Source: Psammoneis japonica
Taxonomy: Eukaryota
Length of the DNA: 64,000 bases
Direction of reading: 5' to 3'
NCBI GenBank assembly: GCA_008632985.1
Contig: QPGO01000007.1
Coordinates: 1-64,000 of the forward strand
The translations under genes and the position numbers were made by a program. Positions within the stretch are counted from its first letter, which is position 1. Each line of letters begins with the position of its first letter. Under the pieces are notes generated by a model. The model searched no databases and was not told where the DNA came from. It saw only the letters and a list, made by a program, of their open reading frames with translations. Below are positions 11,573 through 64,000 of this stretch, one piece after another.

Positions 11573-11764
11573 TATGATTGGTGGATCCTTCGTTAATGAT
11601 GAATTTTGATAAAGACAGCATGCCTTCTTCCTATCTTTTTTGGCACATTTCTCGAGTGCATCAGTTTAGATGAGTTGTTCCGGAGGAGAGTGACGCAACC
11701 GCGCCACTTCCAACTTGGATGGTATAGGTTGCGACTACCCAAGTGAGGAAGAGGACGAAGTTGA

Positions 11765-16214: not shown

Positions 16215-16761
16215 TTTACAGATCTTTGGATCTAGCTTGATGATTCTTCAAATAGACATCATCAAGCATGTGTTTCATGTCCATGAAGTCGGGATGAGTG
16301 ATGCGTGACGCCACCAGCCACCAGCATTGATTGCTTGTGTGCATATTTCGCCTGCGCCACGTACGTTCCGGTCGTATCCGCGACCAGATGACACGTCATC
16401 TATTTGAACAACTTTCAACGGAAAATATTCTATTTTAATACATAGGGCCACGATACATTCAACATATTCAGAATATTTCAAAATATATGCCAGCTTCGTT
16501 TTAAATAACTCCACCACACGCACCACCAAAAATTGCATCTTCAAGCTGGAACGCACACACGCAATTCTCACGCCTTGTTTTCGCGTCGTTCCGGTTCGCA
16601 AATTGATGATGCGATGACTTCCATTTTCTGTGCTGTTTTAGGGTAAAAGCAAAGGAAAGAATTGAACATCTGTTATACTCGCACACTATATCGTACTTTT
16701 GAGTGGTATATAAGGAGAATCTTTCGGTCGTTGAATAGGAACAACAAGTGATCAAGACAAA

Positions 16762-20620: not shown

Positions 20621-23180
20621 TCAAGGCTGTGGCGGTGGCACGCAAGGTCCCAAGTCGTTCGGGTTGAGCTGTGTGTTTCCACCATTATCCATGCAGGAAG
20701 CGCCAGTTGCAGTAGGGTTAATGGCGACATGGGCGGGCTAATTGTGGAGGGGGCAAAGGAGGATATTGAGTGATTGAGAACTTATTTGTTGTTTCGAGGA
20801 ATATTCCTTATACTTACAATGTTGTTCGCAAAAGTGCTTCCCGAAATTGTGGTTGTTCCACCTTCAATGCGAATCGCCCCAATGCCAAAGATCTAAAGCG
20901 TCGTTTGGAGCAGCTCGGGAACGGTTAGGTTGATTTCCAGACAAGTGATAATGAAAAGTAAAGATTGACACACTCACAGATGGCGTGGAAGTGATGCCTT
21001 CGAAAACGGAATCGAAAATGTCCAATGTACCTGACAAAGATCTGAACCAAATAGCGCCTGCAATCTACCGGTGGTGGCGACAGTAAAAGGCAATGCATGA
21101 GATGATGCTTAGTGGGGAATGAAAGTCACGATATTGAAAATGGTTAGCGAGACTCACAAAGCCTTTGGTATCCTTGAACTCGCAGTCATTGACAGTCACC
21201 GTGGCTGCGCTCGTCCTCACAAGGATAGGCAGTGTCGTGCTCCCTATCTGTAAGGAGGGAAGGGTTTAAGGACATGTCACGGCGCATTAAAGTGAAACGT
21301 TTGACAGACGAAAAACTGCCAGGAAACTGAAGAGACCCTGGTTGATAGCATGTGCTAGACTTACATCACGGAAACAGGTGCTGACCAAGTCGACTTGTGA
21401 CGAGATACCAGCTGTTGTTGGATCTTGGCCGAAAATCATTGCGAATTCCTGTCCGCGTATCGCATTTTTCAGAATAGGCGCTGTAAGGGCCGATGATAGG
21501 CACGCGCGGGCGAGGGAAATACCATCAGCAGCGAGACTTACTAGATCCACAAATTCACAATTCCTGACGCTTACGGATGCAAAGTTCAGAGGTGATATAC
21601 GTGCGGCACCTGACTGCAATTCAAACAATTGAAAGACGGTATGAGTATGGACGGGAAACGGATGGAATGGTGAGCAAAACAATAATTCACGATTTCGGCA
21701 GTACTCCTTACTTCGCCGGGTACGCCACCGAATGCACAATTTTCAAAAGAGACGGTTGCATCTAACGCATCCTCTAAGACATTTAGAGCCCTCTGAGTTT
21801 GAGTGACGTACGAACGTGCCGAACAAGATACAAGGAGGTGAGTCACTTTTCAAAATCTAGCTACGGTACAATCGCAGTGTTGTTACTTACGTAACTTCTA
21901 CCCGCCTTGAACTCGATGCCCGTAAAGTTTGACTTGAAACTTGTTGTAGGATTGCCTCGATTATCACCGCTGACAAAAATGTCTTTGTTTACTGCCGCTG
22001 GGCCTTGTATGCTTGACGAATCCATAATGCAATCAATGCCCGCGCAACGAACATCAATGTTCTTGCCGAACAGCTTTACTGGAGTCGGCGGAGTGGATGA
22101 AGGGCCTGTAAAAACAATTGTGCTGCCGCTACACTGGCAAATAAGCGTTGGCTCAGCTGCGGAGACATCGGCAGCGCCCCCAATAGCCGTCACCAAGTCG
22201 ACAAGGTTATCAACACACGGCTGACCTAGACATTTGGTATCAGGTGCCGGGTCCACTATGCGCTTCGTGCAAGGTTTCCGGGTTGGTGCGGATGACGGTT
22301 CCGCCACTGTCGTTGTAGTAGGGACTGACGATGGGTTCAACGATGATGATGATGGCTTCGAACTTGGCGCGAGCGATGGTTCTGCTGAAGGTCCATAGCT
22401 TGGTGCTAATGATGATGATGGTGGGTTTGTTGGTGCGGATGACGGATCCGCTGTTGTTGTAGGGACTGACGATGGGTTCAACGATGATGATGATGGCTTC
22501 GAACTTGGCGCGAGCGATGGTTCTGCTGAAGGTATATAGCTTGGTGCTAATGATGATGAGGATGGGTTAGAACTTGGTGAGGGCACGAGTCCGCCACCCC
22601 CCTTTCCTTTGCCGTGCCCCTTGCTGGTGCTGCTGCCACTTCCACTTTCACCGGCACTTCGTGAGGGCACGAGTCCGCCACCCCCCTTTCCATTGCCGTG
22701 CCCCTTGCTGGTGCTACTACCACTTCCACCTTTACCAGCACTTGATGAAGGAGCGGGGCCGTCACCGTTTCCTTTGCCGTGCCCCTTACTGGCACTGCTG
22801 CCACTGCTGGTTGCTTCTAAAGCAGTGTTAATGGCGGTGACTGGTTGATGTGAATAGTCATCACTGCTGGCCTCGTTAACGATATAGAGTCCTCGGTTCT
22901 CGGTGCGTAGAGATCCGCGCCCTTTGAGAACTCGGTCAACTGGGCGCTGCTCAATCGATGTAGCCGTCATACTAAACTTCAGCCCAACTTTTTCTTTCGC
23001 CTTCGTCTGGACGAGGATAGCTCGTTCATTTCCTTGTTCTTTGGTTGTCGCGTCGCTGTGTTCTTGTGTTGACTCGTCGATGATGAGCAACGAAGGCAGC
23101 AAACGCTTGCCACTGAGAACAAGAGGGACGACGCAAATGAAGAAAACAATAAGAAGCAGGCGGAGAACGGGGCAGATCAT
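20621..23180 (-). CDS. Multi-exon secreted protein with KG/Ser-rich and PSxxP mucin-like repeats plus Cys/beta-rich domains
   Basis: Signal peptide, SKGHGKG repeats and PSSAP/PSLAP repeats in the large first exon. Several downstream small exons with GT..AG borders; last exon PAHVAINP...PPPQP* ends at 20621. Exon structure is approximate. Confidence 0.65.
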
Positions 23181-24017
23181 GATGCTTTCGCTTTGGTGAG
23201 ATGTAAGATAGAAGTTGTGTGCTTACTGCTTACGTTTGATTTGCAGCCCGCGAAAACTCCCGGAATTCATTTTGAGCACTGGATCGTAAACCGCAACGAA
23301 CGAATAAGATGATCGTCCTTTGAGAAGTTCAATTCAAATGCTTTCTAAGTTACATTTAATGGGCATAGAGAGTCAACCTCTGTTTCCCTAAATGAAATGT
23401 GGCGGGAAAACGACTGCGTGCCACCCGGCCCGGCAAGATTTCTGCTCGAAAATGCTTGCTGTTTACAGTGCAGCTAGCACCGTGCAACCCTCTCTCTAAA
23501 GTATGTAAAAGACAACACACATCTTTTCACGCCTTTCGATCGAGTTCTTCCATCTGTTTCGCAGTTTTTCTTCCCGTTTTTGGCGCGGAACTTGGGACAG
23601 GTTACACAGGTTCAATGACGGACAAGCGAAGCAACGCGCAAGGGAAGGATCGTCTGTCCACCATTGTGCCCAACGAATGGACTGCTTTGTGCATTTTGCC
23701 GGCACATGGAGCCTTGCATGACTGGCACAATGGCTCTTCATCTCACTTCTAATTGTTGGACTGTTGCCAGCAGACATTTGTCAAACATGGGCTGACACGT
23801 CTGCTGTAAAATGGTGGTGCTGCCTCCAGCAGCCAGCTGAGGGCTTTGTGCACTGCAGGTGATGAAAAACAGCAGATTGCCAAAAGCCGTGTTGTGGAAA
23901 TCATGAGACTGGTTCATTGTCTTGAAAAGTGGAGTCATGTGAGTGCACAACCACACAAATTTCCTGTTGGTTCACACTTTGGATCTTGCTGCACACAGCC
24001 AGTGCACACCTGCTGTC

Positions 24018-24108
24018 TGTGTGTGTCATGATGCCGGCAATGATGGCTTTTCAATGCACACACACTATGTGAGAATGCTTGCTGCTCAGATCTCTGTGTT
24101 GCTGAGCC
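24018..24108. repeat. Dispersed ~90-bp repeat; second copy at ~32915-32998
   Basis: gtgtgtcatgatgc.ggca.tgatggc...tgcacacac...cttgct.ctcagatctc...gctgagcc in both places. Confidence 0.75.
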
Positions 24109-24199
24109 TTGGAGTCCCCCTGTGCTCCAACAGCGTGTGCCACCACTGCTGTGAGCAGTGCGCACCTTGTGCCCTGGATGGTGCACGCCACGTGCTCCC

Positions 24200-27100
24200 C
24201 CATGACTCAACAAGCAGCGACATGTCCTTGCAGGAGACAGGGCACAATGTGCTGCAGATTGCACATGCCCATCAGTGCACCATTTTGTGTGAAGAGCACT
24301 GCTGTCATGTGCGTGGACAACTTTGGCTTGACTCGCTCACACAACAGCCAGCTCAACATTTTGTCTTTTTTTCTTGTTTCACCAGCGCCAGCTGCCCAGC
24401 AGTGCGCAAGTTTTGTGATCTCATGTCTGTTGTTCAAGTGCACCAGCATCTGCTTTCTGTGCACTTGGCAAGATGGGCAGCAGACAGAATCACATCACAT
24501 CTGAAGGCAGACCAATTGTGCGGGACTTGCGTGTGCAGTCATGTGTGCCACAGCTCTTGTGGCAAAGGCTGCAGCTGATGAAGCACTGTTCAATGGGCAA
24601 CTCTCATCCCAGCTCCACATCCTGTGCTGAAAATGAGTGCACCATGTTGACAAGCACCTGGAGAGTGTGCAGTCCACAACTGCAGATTTCTTTCTTCACT
24701 TGTGGGGTTCCAAGCAATGCCATGGTCATGTTTGATCATTTGACTGAGTTCAGCACCACAAACTCAGCTTTGCAGTCATGGGCCAGCACTTTGACGACCA
24801 CAAATGCCTGCATGGCCATGTTTTTGTTCCATGATGTTTGCCGCAACATCCGCTCCTCATTTGGCAGGTGCTTCCTTGATCTCAAACCAGCCCGGTGGCT
24901 GGGTTGACCATGGTCACTGCCCACAATTGCAAAGTGTCCTTTCCAAGCCCATGTTGTTTATTTTGGCAGGGGCCAATCATGTCAAGACATGGAGCTCCTC
25001 ATGGGATCAACTCAGCCATTTTTCTGGCAGTTTCCCACAATGCTGTGTGTTTGGCATTTTGTCTTCTGGCATTGTTCACACTTGACATGTGCACAGCATG
25101 TCACAGGAGCTCTCATGCTGGGCCAATGGAAGCACTGGGCAATGGAAATTTCTGTGCATGTTTTGTCAGGGTGGCACAGCTGCTTGTGATGCCACTCTGT
25201 TGGAGGCTTTCCCAACACCTCTGGTGAAACAATTTTGTCCTGACAGCACATCAGCTGTCATGATGCACCCCCACCCCCACCCCACAAAAGAACATGTGGG
25301 CAGAGTGCACACTGGATCACTGTGCATTTTGTGACAGGTGCTTGTCCTTCTGCCCTTCTTGTTGCATTTTCTTGAAGCTTGCTGGTGGAGCTGATCCATC
25401 CAAAGTGAATGCTTCATGCAAGGGATGTGTGTCTGGCATCTCTGCTGCTCTGAGGGATTGCACTCAGACTCCAAACTTGGCCCCTTGATGTGTTGCAACT
25501 CAGGGCCACATTCTTCACACAGCAACCACCAAATGCATGATGACTTTGGCAGTGAACACTTTGCACACATGAGATTGTTTTTTGTGACCAGCACATGCAT
25601 TTGTGCATTGGCCAAAGAGCATCACTTGAAATTCTGTCAAGATCTCCACAACAGCCAGCAAGCAATTCTCTCTCTATTGTTGTGCAGCTCAGCTGCACAC
25701 TGTGAAGCTTTCCACCACAAAAGGCAATGTTGGGTCCACTGTCCTGTGACATTGCTGCTCCAAGTTGACATGAGGAGGCATCAACATGGACCTCAAATGG
25801 CTTGTTGAAACCCGGACGCACCAATGAGACATCATCTGACAACACTTTCTCAATGGTCCCAAACACCTCATCTTCTCAACAATGGATGTTCACTTTCATT
25901 TAGAAGCCCCACTTGTGAATCATGCAAGTGGCGCCAGAATTTCAGAGCATTTTTTCCAAGTGTCATGACAGCAGCTCACTGCACCAACAAAACAATGCAG
26001 CTGTTGTTTGGTGGCAGACTTCTTTGCAATGCACTCACCTTGACTTTAGAAGGTGTCAGGTGTGCTTTGCTCTGATTGGCCAAACAGCTCAACAGTGCTC
26101 CAGCTGGGTCTGGCAAAAAAGCAATTTTCTTGCATCAACTTCAAGCCTGGCATTGCTCATGCACACTGGTGAAGCATGACCACCAGCTTTCCAGGTGGTC
26201 TTCATGAGCACCCTCAGCAATTGCAAGAAGATCATCTGAGTGAACATGCATGAATGACAAATCTTTGAATGGCTCTGACATCTTTTCCTGGAAAACATCC
26301 AGCAAATCACATGAGCCCACTGGAAGGACCTGCATTTTGCACTTTCCCCACCATGGGAAGACACACACATGTGCTGCTTTTGGCTGTCACTGTCAAGTTG
26401 AATGTGACAATTTGTTCTGCACTCAAATCCAACAATTTTGTCACACATGATGAAGCCCTTGAGCTGAAGTGGCATGTCCTGGACACAGGGAGCTGGACAA
26501 GGCACTCTTTTGGTTCTTTTGTCTCAAGCTCTCAGAACTTCTTGACACACTGCACCATTGAATCTTTTTTTGGTGTGGCAAACAATGGAGTGGCCCACTA
26601 CAAACGGTTGGCACATTGACAATTGGCACATTTGAGAGTGCCAATCTCACACAAGTGCGCCATCTCTTCATGCAGTGCAGATGGCTTCATGTGCCCTTGG
26701 GACTTTGTGCAGATGATTGTGTCCATGATGTGGCTTCTTGACACCCTCTCTTCAGCTGGGCATGGAGGGGATCCCCTTTCCATCCACCCAAGGGCTCAAG
26801 TTGGCTCAATGGCCTGAGAAGCTGTGCTTTCTAGCCACAATTTGGCCATCATGTTGCCCTCGCATCATCATGTCCTCAAGGCATGCCAGTGCAGCACACT
26901 GGGCACCCAGAATTTTCCAAGTTCTGTCACTTTCCAACAATGGAGGTTTTGGATCTTGAAGACAGAAGGAGGTTTCTGCTGCAGCTTCCACATCTCTCAT
27001 TGGCATCTTGCCAATGACCTGCAGCGTCAATGCCCTGAGGCTCCAATGTGTCTTGCCCAACAAGCATGCTGCATTTGCCTGACAATCCACTGTGCATGTG

Positions 27101-28500
27101 GCTGGACTTCATGTGTGATTTCTGCAGTTGTGGATGATTCTTGCAAAAGTGGAACTCAGCGGCACAATCATGTGCCATTTTGAAGCTGCTGACTGCTGCA
27201 CTCTCCAGTTCATGGTTTGGCCATCACATGACTCTGAAGCTGACTGCAGCACCTCACATCTGGCAGTGTTTTGCTGGCACTGCTGTCCAGCAGTGCCTTG
27301 GTTGCTTCGCCAGTCTTGCCTTTGCCATGCTTGGCACTTGCAGCCACAAACAAGAATGGTGTCAAATGAGCATGCTTGGTGCAAATTCATTGGATGGCTG
27401 GCCTGCAACGCAAGTGCAGTGACAGGACACATTGGTGCATTGAACCCATCTAACTCATGTCAGCCTGCTTCTCAGTCAGGTGCATTCATGATCCAAGTCA
27501 GCATCTGAGTTGCTTGGGAAGAGGTTGCGGAAACAACTAAATTCCTCCTTGCAAGCCTTGTGTTTGGCTTTGGGGCTTGAGCATGCTGCCTTCATCCTTG
27601 GCTTCAACAACCACATTTTGTGCTCATCCTTGTTGCATGCCTTCTGCACAGATGGGTCACTGCTGCTGTCTGATTGGGGTGTTTTGAGACACTTTACTTG
27701 ATGTTTCAAACTGCTGCATGTTTGAGGGCTTTCTCTGGACTCACAATCAATGGTCATCAAGGACTTTCTGTTCCATGGCACCACTTCCCAGGAACATTGG
27801 TGCTGCCTTCCTGCTCACCTTTGGAATGTTCAACACTTGCTCTGCATGCTCACAGAAAAAAAGATGAGTTAGACAATGCCACATGCCAAGGGGCTGCAAG
27901 ACTCCTTAGTGACCATTTCTTTCTGCCACATGTTGAGCACCCTTCAAGTGAGTCAACCAGCTCATCATCTGGCAATGACACAGGCACTGTGCACCATCGT
28001 CCTCCATCACAGGTGGAAACAGTGAACACAGCTGATGAGCTCAAAAGCCCCCATGATGCAACCATGAGTCTTCATGTCAAGCAGCTTGCAAGCACAATGT
28101 TGTTGATGATGCTTCTGCCACAGTGCCACCCAGCAAGGGAAGATGCTTTTGCCAACTTTTGTGAAACATGCCTTGAGCAACACATTGGTTTCCATGTTGT
28201 GTTTCTCAGCTTTGCTGTCAAATGCAGCCAAGGCATCACCTTTGAGCAACTGGCACACAAGCAAAATCTTCTCCGGACCTGCAGCGCTGTGTGGGAATGA
28301 TGGGTGCTCTTCACACACATGCCTGCGCAACATGTTTCTGCACTTGACAAGAAGAACAATGAACAACAACTGCAATTTTCAGGTTTGTGACAGCAGTTTC
28401 CATCAATGCACAATTTTTGCAAACATCAACTGTTCATTGTGTTCTGTCATTTGATTTGTGAACAATTTCACTGTGATTGCCTGTTTGAAGTTGCGCACCA
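24200..28500 (-). mobile_element. Heavily mutated Ty3/Gypsy LTR retrotransposon relic (gag-RT-RNaseH-integrase)
   Basis: RT remnants PWWGKCKMQVLPVG..DVFQEKM..VHSDDLL (from YxDD); RNaseH PFEVHVDASSCQLGAAMSQ..KLHSVQLSCTTIERELL; integrase-like LCHP and HDCKAEF. The order fits Gypsy; borders are approximate. Confidence 0.85.
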
Positions 28501-29409
28501 GCATTTTCTTTGCCGTGGCTGATGTTCACAGATGAAGGTTGCAACAGCATCAAATGTGCAGTGTCTCATTTCACAAATTTTGGTCTTGTTAATTTGGCTA
28601 GAATGCCTTCCATTTGGTCACCCACTGCCTGCATTGCAAGGTGTTTCTGCTGCATTTGTCTCTCTTTGTTTCATTGGACACTGCACAATGCATCTGCCAA
28701 CCCATTGTTTTGGCAACAATGGCACGCCCCTGCCACAATCTGCCAGGTGCTGATTGCTTGTCTGATGACAACAATGAACATGTTCTCCTTTGACATTTTC
28801 AAAAACATCCTCAGTGCTTTTCTTTCTTCCAGCTCATCCTCAACAATGTGCCTCTTTGTTTGCCTGAATGGATTTCAATGGATTTTTTCATGTGGCAGGA
28901 TGGGTGCAAAATTTTGTTACAAAATCAACCAACACAGTGACGTTGGTGGACAACAAGAGCACAACAGCAATGCTGTCTTCAAAATTGTGACAGAGGATGA
29001 GCAACAACAAAATGCTGCTCCTTGTTGCTTGGCAAGAAACTTTGGAAATGGCTTGAGCTGTGCCAGGTGGGGGTGAAAATGACACAGCAAGCTTCTGCAC
29101 CCTTGGTTGCATCAAGGCAAGTTGTGTTCTTGTCTCCTGCATCGTTGCCTCATGCGTTGCTCCCTGCATTTCATGCAGTGCCTCGGCACCATGGGCCGGC
29201 GCATCATTTTCTGTCTTGGTGCTGCTTTGCTCTTGCATCAGAGTTCATTGGCAGTGCCACTGATGGTGCAGCAGTGGCGCACATTGCCAGTTTGTGCTTG
29301 GACTCAGGCACTGGTGCTGTTGCTTTGGGAATGGCAAGGATGCACACTGACACCAAGTTGGCCTTTTTCATTTGGAAAGAATGTCCGGAAACAGCCAGTT
29401 GGGCACTGG

Positions 29410-30150
29410 GCACAAGGTGACAAGGATGGGCCACAACACTTCAAGACCAGCAACCTCACAATGCCCAACTGGCAGAGCTCTCAAAGTGTTGCCTGGGGTG
29501 CACCAAAGACCACCAATGCCCTCTGCCAGCAGTTGTCAGGTTGGTTGGTGCCCCACATGGGATCTTTGCACTCCAGAGTTGGGGAAGTCAAGCCTGCTGT
29601 GCCGTTGGCGGCACAAGGTGACATGGGGCCACAACACTTCAAGATCAGCAACCTCACAATGCCCAACCAGCACACAGCTCTCAAAGTGTCATCTGGGGTC
29701 CACCAAAGACCAGCACCAATGCCCTCTGCCAGCAGTTGTCAGGTTGGCTGGTGTCATCATGGAATCTTTGCACCCTGATGGAGTTGGGAAAGTCAAGTCT
29801 TCTGCTGCTGCTGGGGACAAGGTGTCCCAGGGCCACAACAACATCAACCTTGCAATGACAAACAACAGTTCTTGAAGTGTCACCTGGGGTCCACCAGACA
29901 CCACCACCAATGCCTTCAGCTTGCAGCTGTCAGCTTGGTTGGTGCCATCATTGGGTCTTTTTAGCGTGGAGTTTGGAAGCTCAAGTGTGCTGCTGTTGGG
30001 GAGAGAAGAGGTGAGACATGGGGCCACAATGCCACAAGATCAACAACATTGCAGCTGCCAACAACTGCTCTTTAAATGTTGCCTGTGGTCTGCTGCATGT
30101 TGCCAGCATCCTCAGCCCAGCTTGCAGCTGTTGGGTTGGTTGGCGCCACT
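29410..30150. repeat. Degenerate tandem array, ~200-bp unit, about 4 copies
   Basis: aaggtg...ggccacaacac...caacctcacaatg...ctggggt.cacca...gttgtcaggttgg recurs at ~29412, 29614, 29818 and 30010. Confidence 0.8.
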
Positions 30151-31254
30151 GTGCAACACAAACAAACTGCTCAGACCAGCACAAACAATGTGAAAATTTG
30201 TTCTTGACAACAAGAGCCAGTTGAGATCATGCATGAAAACTGAGGCACAAAACTTCTTAAAAAAAACAGATGCACTGCATGTGATTGAAGCACACAGTGT
30301 TGAGCACACACTGCTGCCAAACAACAAATGACAGCTCACAGCAAAAATGCCCCCCCAGCAATGAAGGAAACTTCAAAAATGAGTGTGACAAAAGGCTCTG
30401 AAAATGACAACTTGCAAAATGACATGGACAATGATTGCCCGGCCAGGTGGCTCATGGCTTGGCATCATGCCAAAATGCACGTCATTGCCACCACACAAAA
30501 CAGCATGAAAATCAGGGTGCTTGGGCCCCATCCTGTGTGCAGCAACAATTTGCAGGAAGGCACCAATGAAGCCAAGGACTGTGCACACTCAAACAAAGAA
30601 AAGCAATGAGAAAAGCAAGAGGCAAGAAGCATGGCACAAAAGCAGGCAGCTCTCAGGACAGTGCAAAAACTTCTTGTGCTTTTGCCTGTCCTTGATGCTC
30701 AGCAGACAAATTTGCACAAGTTTCGCCAGCAGGACATGCTGCACTGCAATGTTGCACCAAGGTGAGTGGAAGTGGCATCATTGTTGTTCAACTGAACATG
30801 CAAAACTCATGACTTCTTTGCTTTCTTCTGGCAGGCATTGCTGCAGCACTCCTTGCATGCTGAGTGACACACAGAGAAGCCAATGCTTGTTGAAAGACAA
30901 ATGACAGAACCGTGACACTGACTGGAACACAGATGCCAGCTTGAGCACAACACCATGCCAGCACAGCAAAGAACAAGAAGATGCCACACAGGAGACAGCA
31001 AAAGGAAATGGGAAGGGGAGTGAGCAGCAGTGAGCAAGAACACGGTGCAGCACAAAGCCAACATTGCCAGAAACCAACATTGCAAAATGTGCAAATCAAA
31101 TTGTCAGCAGCATGCATCCAATGAAAAGAGAGTTGCAATGAGATCAACTTGCATGGTTGTTCTCAGAAATGAGTCAGCACGTCAGCAGTTTGTCGCACAT
31201 GCACTGTTGCCAAGATCAAAAACTGACAAGCCACACACCATGTGTCACTCCTTG

Positions 31255-31700
31255 TGCAATATACAGCTACTAATAAGAGTTAATGTATCACGGCGACGTG
31301 TTACAGCCTTTAAATGTCACAAAGGGCGTGACAAAAATAACCTTTTGTCTGCATGCATACTGCATTATGAATTCATAGCGGAGTGGTACATCGTAACCAC
31401 TAGGCAGGAGGCCAGGGGTTCGAAACCCGAGTGGGAGTTGTCTGCAGCAACGTTGATCATTGTCGAACGCGTAAAACTCTGTGCAGTTCTGTATGTTCCT
31501 TCGTACGTACCCACACTGTTCCGCCAAAACCGTGCAGTGTCAGTACACGTTAGTAAAGAGCCGTATGGACGCGTGATACATGGGGAGGAGTGCAATATAC
31601 AGCTACTAATAAGAGTTAATGTATCACGGCGACGTGTTACAGCCTTTAAATGTCACAAAGGGCGTGACAAAAATAACCTTTTGTCTGCATGCATGCTGCA
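31255..31700 (+). mobile_element. Intact young TRIM (miniature LTR retrotransposon), 446 bp
   Basis: 110-bp LTRs at 31255-31364 and 31591-31700 (TGCA...TGCA) differing at one base; polypurine tract GGGGAGGAG right before the 3' LTR; 4-bp target-site duplication CTTG (31251-31254 and 31701-31704). Confidence 0.92.
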
Positions 31701-33489
31701 CTTGTTGTTTCCCGCTTTGCCAATTGGCTCAAATGTTGACACAACAACATTTGCAATGGCTGCATTGCAAACATGTGTGTGCAAAATCCATCTTGTCAAG
31801 ATCTCACACATTCTTTTGACACCAAATTTCATTGAGTCTCTTGCCCCCCACTTTGCCAATTTGCTTGATTGTCAAAAATGCTTTTGAGGATGGATCATCA
31901 ACTTGCAGGCAGTTTTGTGGGAACTTGCAACTTTTGTAAAAAGATGGACCATGTGTCATCCAAAAGCAAATTTCAGTGACAGGTTGAACTTTGTCTGTTC
32001 ACAACACATCGCAGAATGCACACCAAGATGGTTGCGACCATGTGTGATGTCCAGCTCACAGACTGCAGAAATGTCTGTCAAGTGCCAGTTGTTGTTGGTG
32101 GGGAACATTGTGGCTTGTCCAGCAGAAGTGGCACAGTTTTGGCAAACAAAACAGATCATTGAACCTGACAACTGTGCCAAATCTGACAATTGGTGTTTGA
32201 AGGTGTTGACAAGTGCAGTTCACACACAGGTCTGATGGACCTGATGGGGGGATTGGACACACTCACAGGTGTTTGGGGTGCTTGGATGCATTTGCAAAAT
32301 GATGCTGGCAAAGTTTGGGAAGATGGCAAAATTGCAGTCCATTTAAAAACAATGCTGCCAACCAACAATCCATCCTTGACCACACCAGTCAAAGAGGTCA
32401 GAGCTTGTTGAGAGCGCAGGTTTCTTATCAAAAGCAAAGAATGTGGCTCCAAACGAGAGCCACAACATTGTCCAGATGCACCCACAGAAAAGCACGGAAC
32501 ACTCAGTTCACACATTGCACTGTCAGCATCTGCTGGTGTGCTGGCAAGTTCCTGAGTTCACACATCTGACATTCTCTCTTCAACAGCACCTTCTTCTCTG
32601 GACATTTTGGCTGAATGAGCAGCTCAGCCGCCCACTTCTTTGTGGTTGGTTTGATTTGTCATTGGCTTGACCAACATCACGGCCATCACACACTTGCGGG
32701 AGTGACGTTTTTGTGCCTTGTGCATCACCAGGCAATGAAAAGAGGCAGATCATCAAAAGTCATGTTGTAGAAATGGAGGGACCCATTTGTTGTCCAGAAA
32801 ACAGGAGGAATCAGGTGAATTCCCTGTTGGTTTGCATTTTGCATCATGTGCAGCTGGGCATGCATGAGTTTCTCTGACCCCATTTGCAAGTCATCATGCA
32901 CACACATGTGCATTGTGTGTGTCATGATGCTGGCATTGATGGCCTGTCAAAGTGCACACACCAAGCACTTGCTCCTCAGATCTCCAAGTCGCTGAGCCAC
33001 AGACCCCTCCCGCACTTCCATGGTGGTGCAGGCTGCTTGAGCAACAGGAGGCTGCCACTGCTGTGGTGCACGTGCCTTGCCCCCTGGGACATGCACAGTC
33101 TGGCCATGTTGCCAGTGCAGCACATGCTGCATCAAGCTGCAGGTGTGGCCAAGCTCAGCCAGCTGCTGGGTGGCCAGTGCCGCTGATGCCAGGCCAAGCC
33201 AGGGCTCTCAACTTGCGCGCTGGTTTGCCAAAGGCAATCCAGGCACCTGGGGTTTGTGGGGCCCCAAGTGAAAGCTGCTGGCCAAAAGCACATGCTCTCT
33301 CAGATGTTGGCACAGTGGCAAAGATTGTTTGGGTGGCATTTCCTGCACCATGCACACTTCGTTCATCAGCAAAACAATCTAAAATGCAGACAGATGCAAG
33401 GCAAATGCTGGATGATGCCTGTCTTGTCTGTCAAACCATGGGAACAAACCACAGTTTAGAGCATGCTCACTGGGCAACTTGCATCATTC

Positions 33490-34030
33490 ATTGTGGTTGT
33501 GACTTGGCGTCTTCACCAGCATGATTGTTGATGCCCATGACATGCAGAGGAGCAGCGATCAACATGTCTTGACATGGAATGGTGTGGTGTTGAGTGCAGC
33601 TTGTTCCATGATTTCACCCATCAGCAAACTGAAGCCCACATCCAAGGCAAACCACACTGCTGTGGAGGTTGCCAGTGATTGATGCACAAGGGCTTGTGAA
33701 CAACTCTGCTTGATGCAAGATGCACCATGAACCACGTTGAAGTCATCCAGCCGACGACAATGTTGGGCCACCCCAGCACACTCTCCAAACGCAAGTGTGC
33801 GGCACAATCGACTCCATCTGGGTGAAGATTGTGGGTGTTGGGGCCAAAACAAAGTGCATCAAACAGTGTCATGGCAAAGATGCAGCCCGACAGCACACCA
33901 CTCCAAGACTGTGGACCGCAACAACTGTGATTGAGGCACGGAGAAAGGCGGGTGGTGCTCTGAGGTGCTGGTGGCGCGTGATGGTGAAGATTGTTTGGGT
34001 GGCATTGCACATCCTGAACCTGGCATGTGA
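33490..34030 (-). pseudogene. Hypermutated pseudogene copy of the 19446-19946 membrane-protein gene
   Basis: Collinear with 19446-19946 (flanking homology spans ~33355-34400 vs ~19310-20300); TA dinucleotides replaced; frameshifts present. Confidence 0.92.
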
Positions 34031-34443
34031 GGTGCCTGCTGCATGGATTATGGTTCAAGGTTCATCGTCATCGTGCTTCTCGGTCGCTCCTCGGTTGTGT
34101 TGGTCATCGCGTTGGAACTGTTGGGGAACTTCTTTGAATTTCCAAATTCGGACGGACGCATGGGCGGACTGTATGTTCAATGAATTTTCTTCAGCTTTGC
34201 AGTTCAAAAATGAAACTTGCACTCGTCGGTGTCTGAGATGCCCATGGCGGTGTCGAACGTTATCTTCTATGATACATCTCTTGCCTTTGTCGACCTTGGA
34301 CCGCTGGCAAAGCAATTTGCAAGTTACAGTATCACAACGGGAACAACTAATAATCAAAACGTCATCACTGCATGACGCACCAACTGGCACAGTAGAGAGC
34401 ATTTCACAAACAGCAGACAGCAAATCTTTATGCGACAAGAAAA

Positions 34444-56103: not shown

Positions 56104-56709
56104 CATAACATTAACGATGATTGAAAACTCCACGTCACTAACTCGAGCGCTAATTATTCCAATGCCCTGCTGGAACTAACAAAGACACACACTTGAACAC
56201 CAGATGGTTACTTTGATTTTCACGTGGCTATGACCTCGACATTCATTGGCACAAATTGTGATCACTTCAACCCATTCCCTGCCCCTCTTGGCAAGAGCCC
56301 CCATTCTTTCACTTGGAGGGGCCAGACTTGACTGGATCTGATTTAATTGGAGTTCCATGGATGAAAAGCAGCATGGTGTGAGTGTTCATGAGTTTTGAGC
56401 CACCTGAAGCCACAACGCACACACCACAGCGATCGCACCAATGCAACTTGCTTGGCAGCATTGTCATCATGGTCACCAGATTCCTGGGCATCCAAATGGG
56501 AGAAAAATTGGTGCACTGGATGCTTGATCAAGGAGCATCTCCGTCAATTGTCCCACCTGGACAGGGCCTTGGCACAGAGGTGCTTTGTGGCTGACAATCA
56601 AGCTGTTGCTTCTCTGTGATGTCACATGTGGTCAAAATCCAACTGGCACAATCCGAGTCTGATGTCAAACCCTCAGGTGCACCTGTCTTGTCCTTTTGCT
56701 CCCATGCAC

Positions 56710-57130
56710 AATGATGCAGATGAGAGCAGTGGTTGGTGTCATTGTGCGTGATTGTGGTGGTGGGTTCTTTTGGTTTTGGTTGTGCTGTCACCCACCTTTT
56801 CAGTTCCTTTTCTGTGCAAAGAGCTGCAAGAAGCCTGCTCTCAGTTGCCACAATTGTCAAACCCTTGCTGCAATTTTGTTCACCAGACACAAGCACTTGT
56901 TGCAAGTGCAGCATTTCAAAAAAGTGTGACCAACTTGGTTGGTGGATTGTCCACTGTGCTTTCTGGAAGCAATGTTGTCAAGTTCTTGCACAGCTCAATG
57001 TGGTGTGTTGTAGATGAGTCACATTGTTCCTTTGCTCCCACACAGGCCCTGAGGAATGTTGAGCAGATGTGGTGTGATCCAGCATTGCACCTGCTTCAAG
57101 CCAGGAGATGATTGTGATCTGCACTTGCCT
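56710..57130. repeat. Dispersed degenerate repeat; second copy at ~60405-60790 plus 60970-60997
   Basis: Shared gggttctt...tgtgctgtcacccaccttttcag...ctctcagttgccacaattgt...ccctgaggaatgttgagcag. Confidence 0.85.
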
Positions 57131-57214
57131 GTCCATGTGCATGCACTGTTGTTCTTCTCTGCCCACTGCTGGGTTTTTACTCTTGTGAGCTTGTTCTGCT
57201 TGCTCATTGCCTCT

Positions 57215-57765
57215 GCTGGGCATGTGGCGACACATGCTGCACTTCCTTTGTCCAGCCATTGCCTGTTTCTGATTCCTGCCAGCCAGCTGGCTGCTTTGTC
57301 CATTGCATCCCAGTTGACATTGCAGAAGCTTTCACTTGAAATTGTTTCTGGCAGACCCAGTGCTGGCAGATGAGTTTGGTGCCACGAAGCTTTGTCAATG
57401 TGTCCCTGCTAAAACCAGCAACATTTTGTCCTCTGTCCTGTGCTGTGGAGCTGCAGGGAGGGGGTGGTCTGTGCTTTTGCCACAGATTGCATGTGGTGAT
57501 GTGTGCCACACTCTCTTTGTCCAGCCGTTGCCTGTTTCTGATTCCCGCCAGCCAGCTGGCTGGCTGCTTTGTCCATTGCATTCCAGCTGATGTTGCAGAA
57601 GCTTTCACTTGAAATTGTTTCTGGCAGACCCAGCACTGGCAGATGAGTTTGGTGCCATGAAGCTTTGTCAATGTGTCCCTGCCAAAACCAGCAACATTTT
57701 GTCCTCTGTCCTGTGCTGTGGAGCTTTGGGGAGGGGGGTGGTCTGTGCTTTTGCCCCACAGATTG
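57215..57765. repeat. ~270-bp tandem duplication
   Basis: ctttgtccagcc.ttgcctgtttctgattcc...aaaaccagcaacattttgtcctctgtcctgtgctgtggagct occurs twice. Confidence 0.9.
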
Positions 57766-60700
57766 TCCATTTGTGTCATGTTGAGCAGCATCAAAATCAA
57801 TTGAGCAGGGCTCCATGTGAGTTTGTTCTTGGCGGTGCTCTCAAAGTGTTTTGGCAGTGCTCTCAAAGTTTCAAAGTTGTTGGAGTAATTTGTGGCTGTT
57901 GTGTCTGAGGGCTGGGCAACTTTGTTGTTGTTTTTGCTTCACCAAATGTCTTCCACCAAGCATGTGGTCACTCACAGTCCTGAAATCTCTGCTCTGCATG
58001 ATTGATGCTGCATCTCCTGGGTGGCAGGTCACATTGTTCTCTCTTTAAAAGAGCGCCCTTGTCACAAATGCTGGGATTTTCCCAGCACTTCTTGTTTTGC
58101 TCAACCAGTGCCACTGGCCATGCCCTTTGTGTGAAGATCCTCAATGCACCACTTGTGGCTGGGCAGATGCTGCTGTGTTCATTGCATCAGGGGTGCAAGA
58201 GGTGGCTCTGCCTGCAGCTTCTGTTCTCACCAGCATCAGCCCTGGGTGCTGGAGCACACCCTTCCTTGTGACAGGCCCAGGTCCATTGCACATGCTGTGT
58301 GATGGCCTGCTCCAAATCAAATGTGCCTGCAAATTGCTGGTCTGAATGATGACCATGCACTTTTGTTGTGGGTGCCATTGGTGCAATCAATTTTTGAAGA
58401 GAGATGAGCAGAATCAGGGCAACTTCCTCTTGCTGGTCTTCTTGACTGTCCATGGGTCAAGAAGCTCAGGGCCCTTGTCTCCAGATCCTCCAATCTGATG
58501 TTGAGAGTTTGCTCTGTGCTGTTGAGTGGTGGAAGGACAAGAGGTGTCACACATGTGTCTCCCTTGCCATTCCATGCAACTGCTGGTGCAAGCATTTTCT
58601 GTCACCCATCATGACATCAGCTGGCATGCTCACTCAGAGACATTTGTTGCACAGGCCAAGAGTTTGGCACCCGCTCCAAAAAAAAAAATCCTCTCTGCAA
58701 TTTTTTCAGAATTCAGAAGGAGTGCACCATTGTCCAGGCAATGACTTTTGTGGGTTTGTGGCTTGCCCTCTCTTTGACATGGGTGCTGTTCTCCAACATG
58801 AACCACCGCCAATGTTTGGCCCATGAATGGGTTGCAAGTGCTCCAAAGATGTTGTGTGGTTTGTCCAAGAATGTCCCTCCACTTTGGTTTCTGGTTTGTG
58901 TTTCTTCAACAGTTCCCAGAAGAACTTCTCCTGTGGTTGTTTGCTGTTTTTGTTTGACCAAGGCTTTGACATGTTTCCTGGACAGGACAAACTCGCTCCA
59001 CAGACCAAATCCCTGAAATCCCTTTTGCTCCCAAGCACAGATCTCAGAAATGCCCTGCTGCATGGCCCTGCCATGATCAAGCCTTGCCTGACAACCAGTG
59101 CCTTGATGTGCCTGCCCCAGCTACTTGGAGATGAGACTCTGGGGCAAGAAAAGGGCAGCCCATTGCCCCCTGCATGCACTGAGTCTGGGAGAGCCAGGCA
59201 CCCAATGGGTGTGAGCAATTGCAACATTTTGCTTCTGAGTTGTCATTGTGCGTAATTGGGAAGATTGTTTTTTGGACAATGCAGGTGCCTGGAATTTGCT
59301 GCAAACCAATGAACAGATGAAATGCCGCCAGTGCAATGACAATTTTGCTGCCAGAAACAAAACTTTCACGCACATCCAGCACAAAAAAAAAATCCAATTT
59401 TAAGTGCTGTTGCACCTTTGCCCAGCAACACCAGTGCCGGCTGACCCACAACTCCAGTGCACCCTGCAAGGGGTGCAGCAGAAGATCGTGCGATCAGTTG
59501 GTCAACGTGCCGCTTTGCAGCAATGCACACCAGAGACAAAAGGTCAAGGGGAAATTGCACCAGAAGGAGATCATTGCTTTCTTTTGGAGAGGATTTAATG
59601 CACCCAAACTGCCACAGCAAAGGACAATCATGTCAAGCAGAGAATTCAAAGCCAGCGCAAACTCTGAGAGAAAATCTTTGCCTCTGAGGGAGAATCTTGT
59701 CTTCAACAAAGACTGACTGAATTTCACAATTGTGCAGACCAGAACAACAGCATGCAGTTCACTGCTCAGAACTGTGATCTTGGCAGGCCAGCAAGCAGAA
59801 AAAGGGATGTTCGGGACTTGCAAGGATGAAATGGGAAGTCTTGGCAATGTGATGAGAAGGTCGCCAGAAGAAATGTCATTCTCACTTAGAATCGACACTG
59901 AATCTTGCGCACAAAAGCCAATCCATGCAGCAAATGGACGGTCGTCAGGTGATGCCAATGGTTTGTCCATGCAAACACCCGCAGGTGCCACAACAGGGAC
60001 AGTGCTTTCACCACATGAGGTGAAGAACTTGAGCAGCCAGTGGAAGCAAAAGAAATTGTTGGGGGCTTTTGGGCATGGAAGAAGGAAGTTGATCGCATCG
60101 GAGACGCAATGACAGCCGGTGCACATTTCTGAAGTGCGCAGAATTTGCACTGGATTCTGTGTAGAAATTGCACTGAATCTGCAAAAAAAAATGCCAAATA
60201 AAACAACAAGCACGCGAACCACAAGGTGTCGACGCCAGTCATTTTCCACTAAAAATTGTTGCACATCATGGAGATGAAAGGGTGCGCCAATGGCGGAAGA
60301 TTCCAAAAGGTTGAAAAGGGCGACATCAGCACAAGAGCACACGCAGAAACACATGCAGGGGCTGCCAGTGGGTGCTTGCACAGAAAAGCATGCACATCCA
60401 GCACAAAGATGTGGGTGAGGGCAGTGGTTGTCATGGTGTGCAGTGGCGGTGGGTTCTTCTAGCTTTGGTTGTGCTGTCACCCACCTTTTCAGCAGAACCT
60501 CCATTTCTGCACAAAGAGCTGCTCTCAGTTGCCACAATTGTGATTCCCTCACTGCAACTTTGTTCACCGGACACAAGCACTTGCAAGTGTGGCATTTCAA
60601 AAAAGTGTGAGGACCAACTTGGTTGGTGGATCCTCCACTCTGCCCTCTGGAGCTAATGTGATCAAGTTCTTGCACAGCTCAATGTGGCGGTGCACTGCAA

Positions 60701-62334
60701 ATGAGCCACATTGTTCCTTTGCCACCACAGACCCTGAGGAATGTTGAGCAGCTGCACAGTCCAGCATTGCACCTGGTTCAAGCCAGTCTTCCAAGAGGAA
60801 AGCCACTGAAAGTCCTCATCTTGAACATTTGACCATTCCCTTGCAATGCAGCCTTCAAGAGCAGGAGCTGATCCCATTTGATGACATGTTGAGAAAGAAC
60901 AGCTCCCTTTGCAGCAGCGGGTTGGTGATGGATTGGCTCTGCAGCTCAGTGCCACAATGGGTCCTCCAGGCCAGGAGATGGTTGTGATCTGCACTTGCTG
61001 CTGGTTGATGTGCATGTGCTCCTGTGGTTCTTCTCCAGAGCCACCAAGTGACTGTCCTTTGACCTTTGAAGCACACACACTTGCTCTCTGGAGATTTCAC
61101 AAGGAACCCCCAAACAGCTGGCTCTTTTGGAAACTTTTGAGACCTTGAAGCCAGTCTTCTGATTGGCACCCCAATGCAGAAAAGCCAAAGACAGCGATTG
61201 AAGATCATGTCGTGCGACACCATGTGAAAGAGGCGGGCAGCATTGTGACACCAGTTCGAACAAAGAGGGTGTCTGCTCATCTGTGCATGAGCCCAACGAT
61301 TTCTTGTCAAGATCAAGGTCAAGTTCGACAATGCTTCTTGCACCGGGGCCACAGCTGGCATGCGGCAGAAGTTCCTGCCCGGGCTAGAGTCGTCTGCAGC
61401 CCTGTTGGAACCATGAGAGCCAAGTCTACGAGCGCCATCACAGTTGCGTCCAGGTGAAACAGTGAACATGATCCAAACACACCAGGCGAACGTCACGACA
61501 AACACGAGTGGATTTTCGAGTTTGTTCATCACGAGGTGACTGCAAGCAAAGGGCGACCCGCTGATGACGGGAGCAAGAAAAGGAGTTCCACAAAGCTCTG
61601 TTCCACTGGGAGTTGCAGGAAAAAACAATTGTTGCACTGCTGCTTGATGGCACGGATGATGTGACACGTGGCAGCTTTTTTTGCAGCATTGTTTGTCTGC
61701 CGCATTGCCCCGCAAACAACATCATCATCTTGTCTGCCAGTTGTCATGCTGGGTGTGTCTGTCGTGGAAACGAACAGAGGGCTGTTTCGTGCTTTTGATT
61801 TTTGTTGCTGAGAATCTTGAAATTTGCCATGCGAGAGGAAAAAGTGAGTGCTTTTGGTTGAAGAGAAATGGAGTCAACCAACCACAAGCTTCAATGGGTG
61901 TGAGACAAGAGTGTGGTTTTGAAGCTCGGCATCGGCATCTCTGTTGCATCCCCATCATCTGCACGCGGAATCATCAGAAAAAAAAATGCATGCGCGCACC
62001 GCGCTGAGGCACTGCCAGCATCTGTCTGCACCCCGCAAGGCTGACCACAAAAAAGCGCGGGAAGCACACATCACAATTGCGTCATCGGTGGGTGCATTTT
62101 CATCCCCGGGCACGCTGCCGCCACCCGCCCGTGCATCACGGAGATGCAGTCCGGCGCATGCTGTGGGCCCCATGACAGTGCTGCAGGGCCCTGCTGTGGG
62201 TCCACCTGTGGCAGGTGGGGAGGAGGGGTTCACTTTTGCTCGCGATCGACTCGCGAGGCGTTGCATCGACAATGAGATTGAGGAACATTCACGGCAACAT
62301 CATCTTGGCGACAACATGCTTTCTGCTGTTGATT

Positions 62335-63255
62335 TTAGTTGTCAAAATGATCCACATCAAATGGTGAGTGACCCATCATGAGGGCCAACTGTGTGATGTT
62401 GGCCACGGCATGAAACACATGGCAATGTGTTTCCTTCGCGTGGCGGCATCTTTTGTTGAGCATTCCGAAACGCTTGAACCATCCATTGACAGCCTCATGC
62501 CTTGCCCTTGCTGTTGTTTTCGTGGCCTCGTCTGCATTTCTTAGGCCGGATGGAGTCGAGCTGCACTGGCTCCCGTTGCTGCGGCCACCGTCGGCCAGAC
62601 ACATCTCGCCGTCTTCAAGCTCTTCAATGATCCATTCATGAGCAATGTTCAGATCCGGCAACCCAGCTGGGTGCGGCCCATTGACCCAAACAATCCACCC
62701 TGTCTGAATGCATGTTCCAATTTCATGCCGCAGCCCAGCACCGTGGAATTTGTGGGAGAACCACATTGGATCGAATGGTGATGGCTCGTAGATTCTGAAA
62801 TCAGTGCCGTCGAGTGTCACCAAACATCTGCTGCCGTTGTCATCAATGAAGCGGTCTTCCCAGTGAATCTAAGAACAAGGTGTCAGTCCATTTGTTTCAC
62901 ACACATGAGCAATGTCTGGAATGGTGCGCGCCAAATTCAACTGTCCAACAAGTTGAATTCTGACCCAAACCCATTTTCTCAGCGTGTCTTCATGGATTTT
63001 ATTACAGATGCCAGCAACGACTGTCTCAGATTCATGCAATTTGAGAAAGCAAAGGGTGTGGAGCAGGTGAATGGGCAAAAAACCTTGTGGCATTTTCCCG
63101 TCGTCAATGAGAAGCCCCCACAACTCAGATGCCACTTCTTCTGGGGTGCAGAAGCATGCTGCAGGTGACCCTTTTGGCTTCTGAATGATCGTCTGTGCCA
63201 AGCACTCTGTGGCCTCTTTGGGCAGTCTCATGATTGGCAATTGGCAGTGTGCCAC
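62335..63255 (-). mobile_element. PIF/Harbinger-type DDE transposase (DDE_Tnp_4-like), mutated; probably two exons
   Basis: HLLHTLCFLKLH...TLRKWVW, then IHWEDRF...VTLDGTDFRI.EPSPF...WFSHKF...GLRHEIG.CIQTGWIVWVNGP...LADGG...RARHEAVNGWFKRF. Confidence 0.9.
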
Positions 63256-64000
63256 AGTGTGTCACTTTAGCGTTTGTGCCAGTCTCTACCACTGGCAGCT
63301 GCTCTCTGCTCTGCAGCAGCTGGCTGCTCTAGAGAGTGGCACAGCAGTTGTTTGACATTTGACAATTGTGTTTTGTCGTCTTCACGCAGTTGGGGTTCTC
63401 ATTAGAAGAGGCCTTTGGTGAGATTCCGTCGTGTTTGAAGAAAATACGAAAAAAATGCGATTCGGGTGTGGTTTCCGAATGGTGACTTTGGGACGTTCGC
63501 AATGGGCAACTTTGGGCGTCGTTTTGTCAACCGGAACACGGTAGAATGACCATTCCAACGCGTGCTCTTAGCTCAACTAACACAGCAGTTTACATGCAAC
63601 ATGTGACACAGAATTTTAAAACCACAATCCATGGTTGGTGGTGCATTAAAAAAGCATTCTCATTCTACAAATCGAAATGAAATCGCCTTTTCACAGACGA
63701 AAAGCGCACGGAAATGTGCCAATGAAAAGCCAAAATGAACATCAGGAGCTAGTTTGCCATCAGTGCCATCGCAAACACACACCAAAGCTTGGGATTCAGC
63801 CACTCATTCTTCAGTTGAGATGGTCCAAAGTCATCGTTCTGGAGCTGAAAATCGTTTTGGGTGTGATTTGGGAACAATTTTTGTGTGGTCTTGGAATGTT
63901 TTTCGTGTGGTCTTGAGGGAATCTTCGTTGTCAAGAGGCCCTTTCTCAATGTTGGCGGTTGGTGTTTTCTCAAATCTCATTTTGGCGGTTGGAATTTATT

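Follow-up and report, generated by a model that had tools for sequence, protein, structure and literature searches.

Introduction

To our knowledge, hypermutation directed at transposable elements (TEs) has been described only as C-to-T change, as in repeat-induced point mutation (RIP), its relatives and the action of APOBEC enzymes, or as A-to-I editing at the RNA level. RIP, found in Neurospora and other ascomycetes, and the TpCpG-to-TpTpG process of basidiomycetes introduce dinucleotide-specific transitions into DNA after insertion. Both are confined to repeats or TEs with sharp edges, affect both strands and destroy coding capacity. We describe a locus in the diatom Psammoneis japonica that shares these properties and in which a different dinucleotide, TA, has been lost. 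The locus lies in a stretch of 64,000 nt (contig QPGO01000007.1 of assembly GCA_008632985.1, positions 1 to 64,000 of the forward strand), which we refer to in full as the window. Two blocks of this window, one with remnants of a Ty3/gypsy retrotransposon and one with a PIF/Harbinger transposase remnant, are almost free of TA and rich in CA and TG. An earlier note on this DNA, made from the sequence alone, had proposed that A-to-G mutation erased TA to TG or CA across the first of these blocks.

Other described systems resemble parts of this pattern. Editing of retroelements by ADAR or APOBEC likewise leaves clusters of one transition type in TE copies, but it acts on RNA or cDNA before integration and is strand-asymmetric. 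TadA and ADAT deaminases, together with the laboratory adenine base editors derived from them, change A to G through inosine and prefer a 5' T or U. We know of no natural member of this family that acts on chromosomal DNA. Very-short-patch repair in enterobacteria depletes CTAG by T-to-C changes and shows that a repair activity can remove a word containing TA. That loss is bacterial, genome-wide, motif-specific and mild, whereas the loss described here is confined to TEs, affects all TA and is near total.

Diatom TEs are documented as methylation targets in PMC9998398, which also reports that diatoms carry RID-related DNMT4 enzymes of unknown function. A preprint, 10.1101/2024.10.28.620566, places eukaryotic N6-methyladenine (6mA) at ApT near active transcription start sites and off TEs, with little mutational footprint, and describes the diatom P. 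tricornutum as having exclusively 5-methylcytosine (5mC). PMC7884421 is ordinary RIP-index work. A full-text literature search, with subscription journals and bioRxiv supplements outside its reach, found no description of TA-to-CA/TG hypermutation.

Results

We counted dinucleotides in the two blocks, called domains 1 and 2 below (Table 1), and in the flanking DNA. Domain 1 was pooled over 23810-31250 and 31705-34045 (9,782 nt), leaving out a young insertion of 447 nt. It contains 24 TA, an observed/expected ratio (o/e) of 0.04; base-composition shuffles (n=200) gave 636±16. CG is reduced to 85 occurrences (o/e 0.15), and CA (1231, o/e 1.99) and TG (1185, o/e 1.96) stand at about twice expectation. 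Domain 2 (6,911 nt) contains 23 TA (o/e 0.05) against 429±15 in shuffles and has a CG o/e of 0.33. Across both domains, o/e values for CpA and TpG are 1.75-1.99. The flanks (44,772 nt) give 0.58 for TA, 1.00 for CG, 1.13 for CA and 1.14 for TG. The earlier note had judged by eye that TA was nearly gone from domain 1, that TG and CA were very abundant and that CpG was depleted, and the counts bear out all three impressions.

Each 1-kb window in 24001-31000 and 32001-34000 holds one to five TA (o/e 0.02-0.08), with o/e of 0.05-0.27 for CG, 1.76-2.48 for TG and 1.75-2.15 for CA. Ordinary flanking windows of the same size hold 21-74 TA (o/e 0.31-1.05) and have a CG o/e of about 1. Among 624 sliding windows of 600 nt, 159 have a TA o/e below 0.15; 157 of these lie in the two domains and the remaining two in a 410-nt tandem array. 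Within the 64 kb, the domain ratios of 0.04-0.05 are thus unlike the flanking value, as the earlier proposal predicted. The edges of domain 1 are sharp, again as claimed: at 200-nt resolution, the left one falls within 23600-23800 and the right one within 34000-34200. The low-TA state ends at the borders of the TE-derived blocks, in agreement with the proposed confinement to TEs. About 560 nt of TA-less DNA at 33485-34050 lies past the right long terminal repeat (LTR)-like repeat and has no recognized TE homology. This segment is either another TE fragment or a sign of the process spreading past the end of the element.

The fraction of pyrimidine-purine (YpR) steps is 0.258 in domain 1, 0.244 in domain 2 and 0.239 in the flanks. 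An unchanged YpR total is predicted if TA and CG were turned into CA and TG by transitions. AA is not depleted (o/e 1.16-1.28 in the domains versus 1.12 in the flanks). In six-frame translation, Tyr makes up 0.06% of residues in the domains and 2.11% in the flanks; the corresponding values are 5.59% and 3.27% for His, and 6.75% and 3.56% for Cys. The exchange of Tyr for His and Cys that had been noticed in single translations therefore holds for the domains as a whole.

Remnants of TE proteins allowed us to read the direction of change. Domain 1 encodes a reverse transcriptase, an RNase H and a weak integrase match in that order, all on the minus strand, which is the order of a Ty3/gypsy LTR retrotransposon. 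In the reverse transcriptase, GKYEY..VYLDD of Ty3 (4OL8) aligns with GKCKM..VHSDD, and the HSDD motif of the earlier note is indeed found at 26242 on the minus strand. The SCTT motif, also reported there, lies in the RNase H frame, and its Cys occupies a position that is Tyr in 77% of relatives. The RNase H remnant has 359 relatives at E<=1e-3. We compared it with 165 aligned stretches from 150 relatives and found 30 of 48 conserved columns intact, but all three Tyr-majority columns changed (codons CGT, TGT and TGC). Codon reading of the 18 changed conserved columns assigned nine to TA>CA/TG and two to CG>TG (GCG>GTG). Examples of the former are L>S (TCA), V>A (GCA), I>M (ATG) and t|AGN>t|GGN across codon boundaries.

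The transposase remnant of domain 2, a block beyond the coordinates of the earlier note, gave the best evidence. Its DDE_Tnp_4 match, above the cut-off, places it in the PIF/Harbinger group, and it has 226 homologues at E<=1e-3 (best identity 71%), one of which is named for the diatom Seminavis robusta. TA has been lost from this gene, and the protein is otherwise well preserved: relative to 41 homologues, 97 of 121 conserved columns are intact, while all five Tyr-majority columns have changed, to Y179H (CAT), Y221C (TGT), Y227R (CGC), Y305H (CAT) and Y168F (TTC). Changes of CpG type are also present (CGT>CAT, CGG>TGG and c|GAC>c|AAC). The R>H (CGT>CAT), R>W (CGG>TGG) and A>V (GCG>GTG) replacements in these proteins fit 5mC-type CpG decay. 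Conserved Tyr codons thus now read CAT, TGT, TGC, CGC or CGT in two unrelated TE proteins, which supports the proposed direction, TA to CA or TG. Open reading frames are broken in all frames, with 104 stops in the first minus-strand frame tried. A Pfam search on stop-free frames of at least 70 amino acids, in sets of 80 and 65, left most frames without any match.

Repeats within the domains record when the changes occurred. A site with CA in one copy and TG in the other needs a TA or CG ancestor that was resolved separately in each copy, which places the mutation after the duplication. Six in-domain repeat comparisons under ordinary scoring, three of which are between ~200-nt tandem repeats that share copies, gave 6, 6, 3, 3, 3 and 2 such CA/TG-discordant pairs. 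The seven other double-transition classes together gave 0-2 per comparison, and control repeats outside the domains (n=3) gave no CA/TG-discordant pairs. The cleanest record of in-place mutation is the 277-nt tandem duplication in domain 2. Twelve of its 21 transitions form six CA-versus-TG pairs and five more fall at CA/TG sites opposite CG or TA, so that 17 of the 21 are at YpR sites. A second pair in this domain (56706-57104 and 60401-60786) has six discordant pairs and three sites at which one copy has kept TA. The LTR-like repeats of domain 1 lie 8.9 kb apart and share a blastn core (24018-24108 versus 32914-32998, 78%). A transition-tolerant, low-confidence alignment of this pair covers 308 nt at 65% identity, with 77 transitions, 32 transversions and 15 CA/TG-discordant pairs.

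Both strands are affected. The counts of CA and TG in domain 1 are nearly the same, and outcomes at adjacent sites are interleaved. Together with the discordant repeats, these findings uphold two further parts of the earlier reading: symmetry between strands and action on DNA in place after insertion. We considered and rejected strand-coordinated, processive mutation. The discordant sites alternate in outcome, and the dispersion of CA versus TG per 200 nt is 1.39 in the domains versus 1.67 in the flanks. Routes through RNA editing or processive mutation of a single strand are unlikely, since the DNA transposon is affected as much as the retroelement, CA and TG are equally frequent and outcomes switch from site to site.

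TA loss and CG loss can be told apart in domain 2. The CG o/e is 0-0.3 in two sub-blocks that we take to be older (56.4-59.2 and 60.4-61.2 kb) and 0.6-0.9 in the part in which the transposase protein is well kept (61.2-63.0 kb). In this last part, TA o/e is 0-0.12 although CG has been only partly lost. TA loss is therefore separable from CpG decay and faster. We infer that TA is lost rapidly and to saturation, and CG more slowly, at a clock-like pace.

The insertion that interrupts domain 1 resembles a terminal-repeat retrotransposon in miniature (TRIM). The 447-nt island (31254-31700) has normal contents of TA (35) and CG (24). It is flanked by CTTG on both sides, and its terminal repeats are 99% identical, the sole difference being TAC (31358) versus TGC. 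Logan depth over the insertion is 21,800-59,000, compared with ~35 for single-copy DNA, indicating a very high copy number in the genome, roughly 600-1,700 copies. Of the nine variant positions listed for this family, seven are T>C or A>G changes of a base within a TA, while only 29% of the element's A/T bases sit in a TA; 33 further variant rows were left out of this count. At the TA of 31401/2, 32% of the depth has CA and 67% has TG (contig depths behind such shares are rough). Both derived states are one step from TA, so TA is ancestral at this site. The family appears to be caught in the middle of mutation, and its copy in the window is one of those with few changes. The island had no Rfam match and no tRNA match. 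Its internal part contains a box-B-like sequence, ggttcgaaaccc.

We compared the assembly with Logan contigs of a read set at ~35x, run X1. These contigs (depth 31-36) cover 22662-24944, 25229-29535, 29919-31167 and 31677-34005, 10,168 nt in total, with no differing letter. Run X1 is perhaps the assembly's own data, and the agreement thus rules out consensus or polishing error without amounting to a second platform. Within that limit, the reads do not carry TA where the assembly has TG or CA. Each site in the contigs has one definite state. A modified base that was misread would yield a mixture of TG and CA from the two strands, and since no strand-dependent mixture was seen, a base-modification artefact is very unlikely to account for the pattern. 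A second read set, run X2, covered the flanks and, inside domain 1, only the island; a third, run X3, gave nothing over the region. We drew no conclusion from either. Depth is ~31-36 over domain 1 and its left flank, and at heterozygous sites at 34.85-35.9 kb it totals 65-77, with each allele at ~35. Possibly only one haplotype carries the TE block, or else the second allele differs greatly.

The neighboring bases appear to influence which TA sites are lost. YTAR accounts for 27 of the 47 TAs that survive (19% expected, p 9e-9) and RTAY for none of them (30% expected, p 6e-8); this bias also holds if the survivors were newly made from CA or TG. The ratio of YTGY (=RCAR) to YCAY (=RTGR) is 1.47 and 1.48 in the two domains; the flanks give 1.17 and a set of 80 unmutated Harbinger loci gives 1.15 (pooled p values for the excess, 0.0045 and 0.0002). 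TGC shows the largest excess, +19 per kb. These data suggest a context rule in which TAY becomes TGY, equivalently RTA becomes RCA, and YTAR would be slowest to change. Both asymmetric variant sites listed for the TRIM-like family fit this rule. Two informative repeat-pair sites still hold TA; one fits and the other is contrary. The same survivor and YTGY data suit an adenine-directed TAY rule and a thymine-directed RTA rule alike. Among the residual CG sites of domain 1, 35 of 85 are RCGY versus 20%.

We analyzed 80 loci with related Harbinger genes from an environmental set. Whole-locus TA o/e in these is 0.34-0.99, so the TA-less state is not a trait of the family. In 11 loci (L004, L019, L020, L022, L024, L025, L043, L050, L072, L076 and L078), His or Cys occupies near-invariant Tyr positions. 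The median TA o/e of the coding stretch is 0.33 in these 11 and 0.62 in the others (p 6e-6); the lowest values are 0.13-0.23, and among the nine listed (all but L024 and L025) the range is 0.13-0.47. L004, L019, L020, L022, L072 and L076 are partly TA-poor. This weakly suggests that a milder or partial form of the same process may occur in other diatoms. A Tyr codon yields His or Cys by a simple transition, which makes these loci weak evidence.

Discussion

We consider it probable that the two domains record an A:T>G:C hypermutation that is specific to TA and confined to TEs, superimposed on ordinary CpG decay. The transposons would already have been inserted when a process acting on the DNA itself turned nearly every 5'-TA-3' into CA or TG. 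Its A:T>G:C transitions would fall on either strand, independently from site to site, and stop sharply at the ends of the TE blocks. The rate would be far above background mutation and above CpG decay, with TAY preferred on the changed strand. The loss of CG to TG and CA in the same blocks would be due to the usual, slower decay that methylated CpG undergoes in silenced diatom TEs. Such a process would disable transposons by turning catalytic Tyr into His or Cys and by removing TA-containing signals and target sites of the TA/TTAA type.

Several observations weigh against this interpretation. The copy of the TRIM-like element in the window is almost untouched despite the very high copy number of its family, so a large number of copies is not by itself enough for immediate mutation. 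At a likeness of >=90%, most of domain 1 is single-copy today (depth ~35). The two Tyr>Arg changes (TAY>CGY) require a second event outside TA, at CAY, and the specificity for TA is thus not absolute. The ancestry of a CA/TG-discordant pair is ambiguous between TA and CG. The proposed TAY rule draws on composition baselines (p 0.0002-0.0045) and a few direct sites. To these we add the variant rows left out of the TRIM-like count and the possibility that run X1 is not independent of the assembly.

The comparison with RIP is instructive. RIP changes C:G to T:A mostly at CpA and makes TpA, whereas the dominant change here is A:T to G:C at TpA, so that RIP indices would read the opposite way. TpA has fallen where RIP would raise it, CpA and TpG have risen where RIP would lower them, and the C-to-T component is limited to CG>TG/CA. 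No cytosine methyltransferase or deaminase chemistry yields TA>CA/TG; DNMT4 could serve the C-to-T half at most. Decay of methylated CpG, if the DNA is methylated as we suppose, accounts for the CG>TG/CA half, for its coincidence with TEs and for the differing degrees of CG depletion among sub-blocks, but it cannot remove TA. The earlier note was therefore right that C-to-T processes such as RIP and 5mCpG decay do not account for the TA loss. The features expected of ADAR-type editing, namely restriction to elements with an RNA intermediate, one-strandedness and action before integration, are also missing: a DNA transposon is affected, on both strands and in place.

The alternative that survives best is that TA loss is a passive by-product, which we consider unlikely. 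In silent DNA with dense methylation, frequent repair of the T:G mismatches left by deaminated 5mC, or late or error-prone replication, would recruit a low-fidelity, Pol-eta-type polymerase that misinserts G opposite T at TA, and TA would erode slowly alongside CG. The two losses do share blocks and edges, and the WA (W, A or T) hotspot of Pol-eta includes TA. However, WA also includes AA, and only TA is lost. This proposal also sits poorly with the saturated TA loss at 61.2-63.0 kb, where CG is only partly depleted and the Harbinger protein has kept most of its conserved columns, and with the 277-nt duplicate, where transitions are concentrated at YpR sites and accompanied by a single transversion.

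Inheritance or selection of composition is a very improbable explanation. A source that avoids TA and CG, or selection against TA such as escape from a TA-cutting nuclease, has parallels in the short-word avoidance known in viruses and phages. Against it, catalytic and invariant residues are destroyed and reading frames are broken. Harbinger relatives have a TA o/e of 0.34-0.99, duplicates diverged in place, and the same composition is found in TEs of two unrelated classes and in a tandem array.

We give still less credence to an artefact of sequencing, base modification or polishing: the window does contain a scaffold gap (N run 13026-13523) and the assembly may have been built from the one read set that was found, but the contigs match without a difference, each site has one state, and the changes make sense as protein evolution (Tyr>His/Cys), end abruptly where the TEs end and bypass the young insertion. 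Equally hard to credit is A-to-I hyper-editing of TE transcripts by an ADAR- or ADAT-like enzyme before reverse transcription, which could draw on the RNA intermediate of the gypsy element and the preference of A-to-I editors for a 5' U, and which the data already contradict, because the PIF/Harbinger DNA transposon is equally affected, strands are equally affected with outcomes alternating by site, in-block repeats and duplications diverged at these sites after they formed, and non-coding parts and the tandem array have changed as well.

If TA-specific hypermutation is the correct interpretation, the next question is its agent. Of the earlier reading, the direction, strand symmetry, in-place action and TE confinement have stood; the agent and the targeting that it named do not follow from the data. 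Two of its candidate agents fare poorly: the 6mA distribution given in 10.1101/2024.10.28.620566 disfavors decay of canonical N6-methyladenine, and undepleted AA fits badly with the WA signature of a Pol-eta-type polymerase. A third, a TadA/ADAT-like deaminase, is a possible agent. TA loss may be driven by an enzyme directed to silenced or repeated DNA, as in fungal RIP. Among the candidate chemistries, we rank highest the conversion of DNA adenine to hypoxanthine by a deaminase of the TadA/ADAT type; the 5' T/U preference of these enzymes resembles the proposed TAY context, and the natural tRNA target of TadA, U-A-C, has a 3' C that loosely fits it. Alternatives would be excision of adenine followed by C insertion, or an oxidized thymine that mispairs with G. 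The base attacked may be adenine or thymine, as the two leave the same sequence behind.

More tentatively, we suggest that diatoms possess a genome-defense mutator whose chemistry is not known from nature, a proposal we take seriously while stopping just short of calling it probable. An enzyme acting on silenced or repeated DNA would convert A (or T) at TpA, with a TAY preference, to a base that is read as G (or C), forming a mirror image of RIP. It might be the first natural DNA adenine-directed deaminase, and it might be found in other diatoms. Such a system would be a second chemistry for genome defense. It would point to an undiscovered DNA-modifying enzyme, possibly a natural adenine or thymine base editor with a TAY context, and would explain the permanent disabling of some diatom TEs. 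TE ages and RIP indices would then have to be read differently in stramenopile genomes. TAA and TAG stops, TATA-like signals and target sites of the TA/TTAA type would be missing from the resulting DNA, with a possible influence on subsequent insertions. Because the window holds both saturated old copies and a high-copy family apparently in mid-process, the question is directly testable.

Other features of the window

The coordinates of all features are collected in Table 1.

Table 1. Features of the TA-less domains and of the insertion within domain 1.
Feature	Position	Strand	Remarks
TA-less, CG-poor, CA/TG-rich domain 1, left part	23800..31250		TA o/e 0.02-0.08 per kb
TA-less domain 1, right part	31705..34050		right edge within 34000-34200
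TA-less domain 2	56350..63260		sub-blocks differ in CG depletion
TRIM-like insertion, young, essentially unmutated	31255..31700	+	~110-nt terminal direct repeats, start TG, end CA
LTR-like repeat copy A	23843..24160	+	partner 32715-33046
LTR-like repeat copy B	32715..33046	+	partner 23843-24160
Possible integrase zinc-binding remnant (weak)	25015..25257	-	Pfam Integrase_H2C2, E 0.011, 16.2 bits (below cut-off 25.5)
Ty3/gypsy RNase H remnant	25417..25875	-	Pfam RT_RNaseH_2, 1.3e-11, 44.9 bits (cut-off 29.8)
Ty3/gypsy reverse-transcriptase remnant, HSDD for YxDD	26144..26386	-	phmmer vs Ty3 reverse transcriptase 4OL8, E 4.9e-4
Array of ~200-nt tandem repeats	29409..30148	+	copies partly differ by CA/TG-discordant pairs; Logan depth 371-890
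Repeat pair, domain 2	56706..57104 with 60401-60786	+	86% identity
277-nt tandem duplication, domain 2	57220..57765	+	270 aligned, 92% identity, 21 transitions, 1 transversion
PIF/Harbinger transposase remnant, one in-frame TAG	62338..63261	-	Pfam DDE_Tnp_4, 2.9e-7, 30.7 bits (cut-off 24.8)

Domain 1 also contains a 76-amino-acid frame at 28523-28750 (+) with a weak likeness to xanthine/uracil permeases (E 1.7e-4, 20.9 bits, below the cut-off of 27). This frame may be a captured or overrun fragment of a host gene. If the fragment is real, the process would reach non-TE DNA within the block. Pfam matches below cut-off, such as this Xan_ur_permease match and one to Fer4, were not used in our analysis.

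Two TA-poor stretches outside the domains, at 8.7-9.9 and 11.8-13.0 kb, were rejected as instances of the same phenomenon. They are GC-rich tandem arrays with near-normal CG and are TA-poor for ordinary compositional reasons. The array at 11764-13025 has a 410-nt unit (3.1 copies, 95% matches) and adjoins the N gap. The arrays at 8767-9830, with GC-rich units of 60 and 33 nt, lie in long frames on both strands.

The genes of the flanking DNA are those of a diatom by their relatives. An allantoicase gene at 47777-49249 (-) has its best named relatives in the pennate diatoms Asterionellopsis, Amphora, Seminavis, Nitzschia and Pseudo-nitzschia, at up to 67% identity. A 1,268-amino-acid frame at 394-4200 (+) combines leucine-rich repeats (LRRs), a Roc GTPase and a TIR domain and is a putative ROCO/TIR-type immune receptor. 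Diatom-type LRR proteins are also encoded at 16735-18921 and 34396-36810. Besides these LRR and ROCO/TIR genes, the flanks carry major facilitator superfamily (MFS), ATP-binding cassette (ABC) and ultraviolet-B (UVB)-sensitivity genes.

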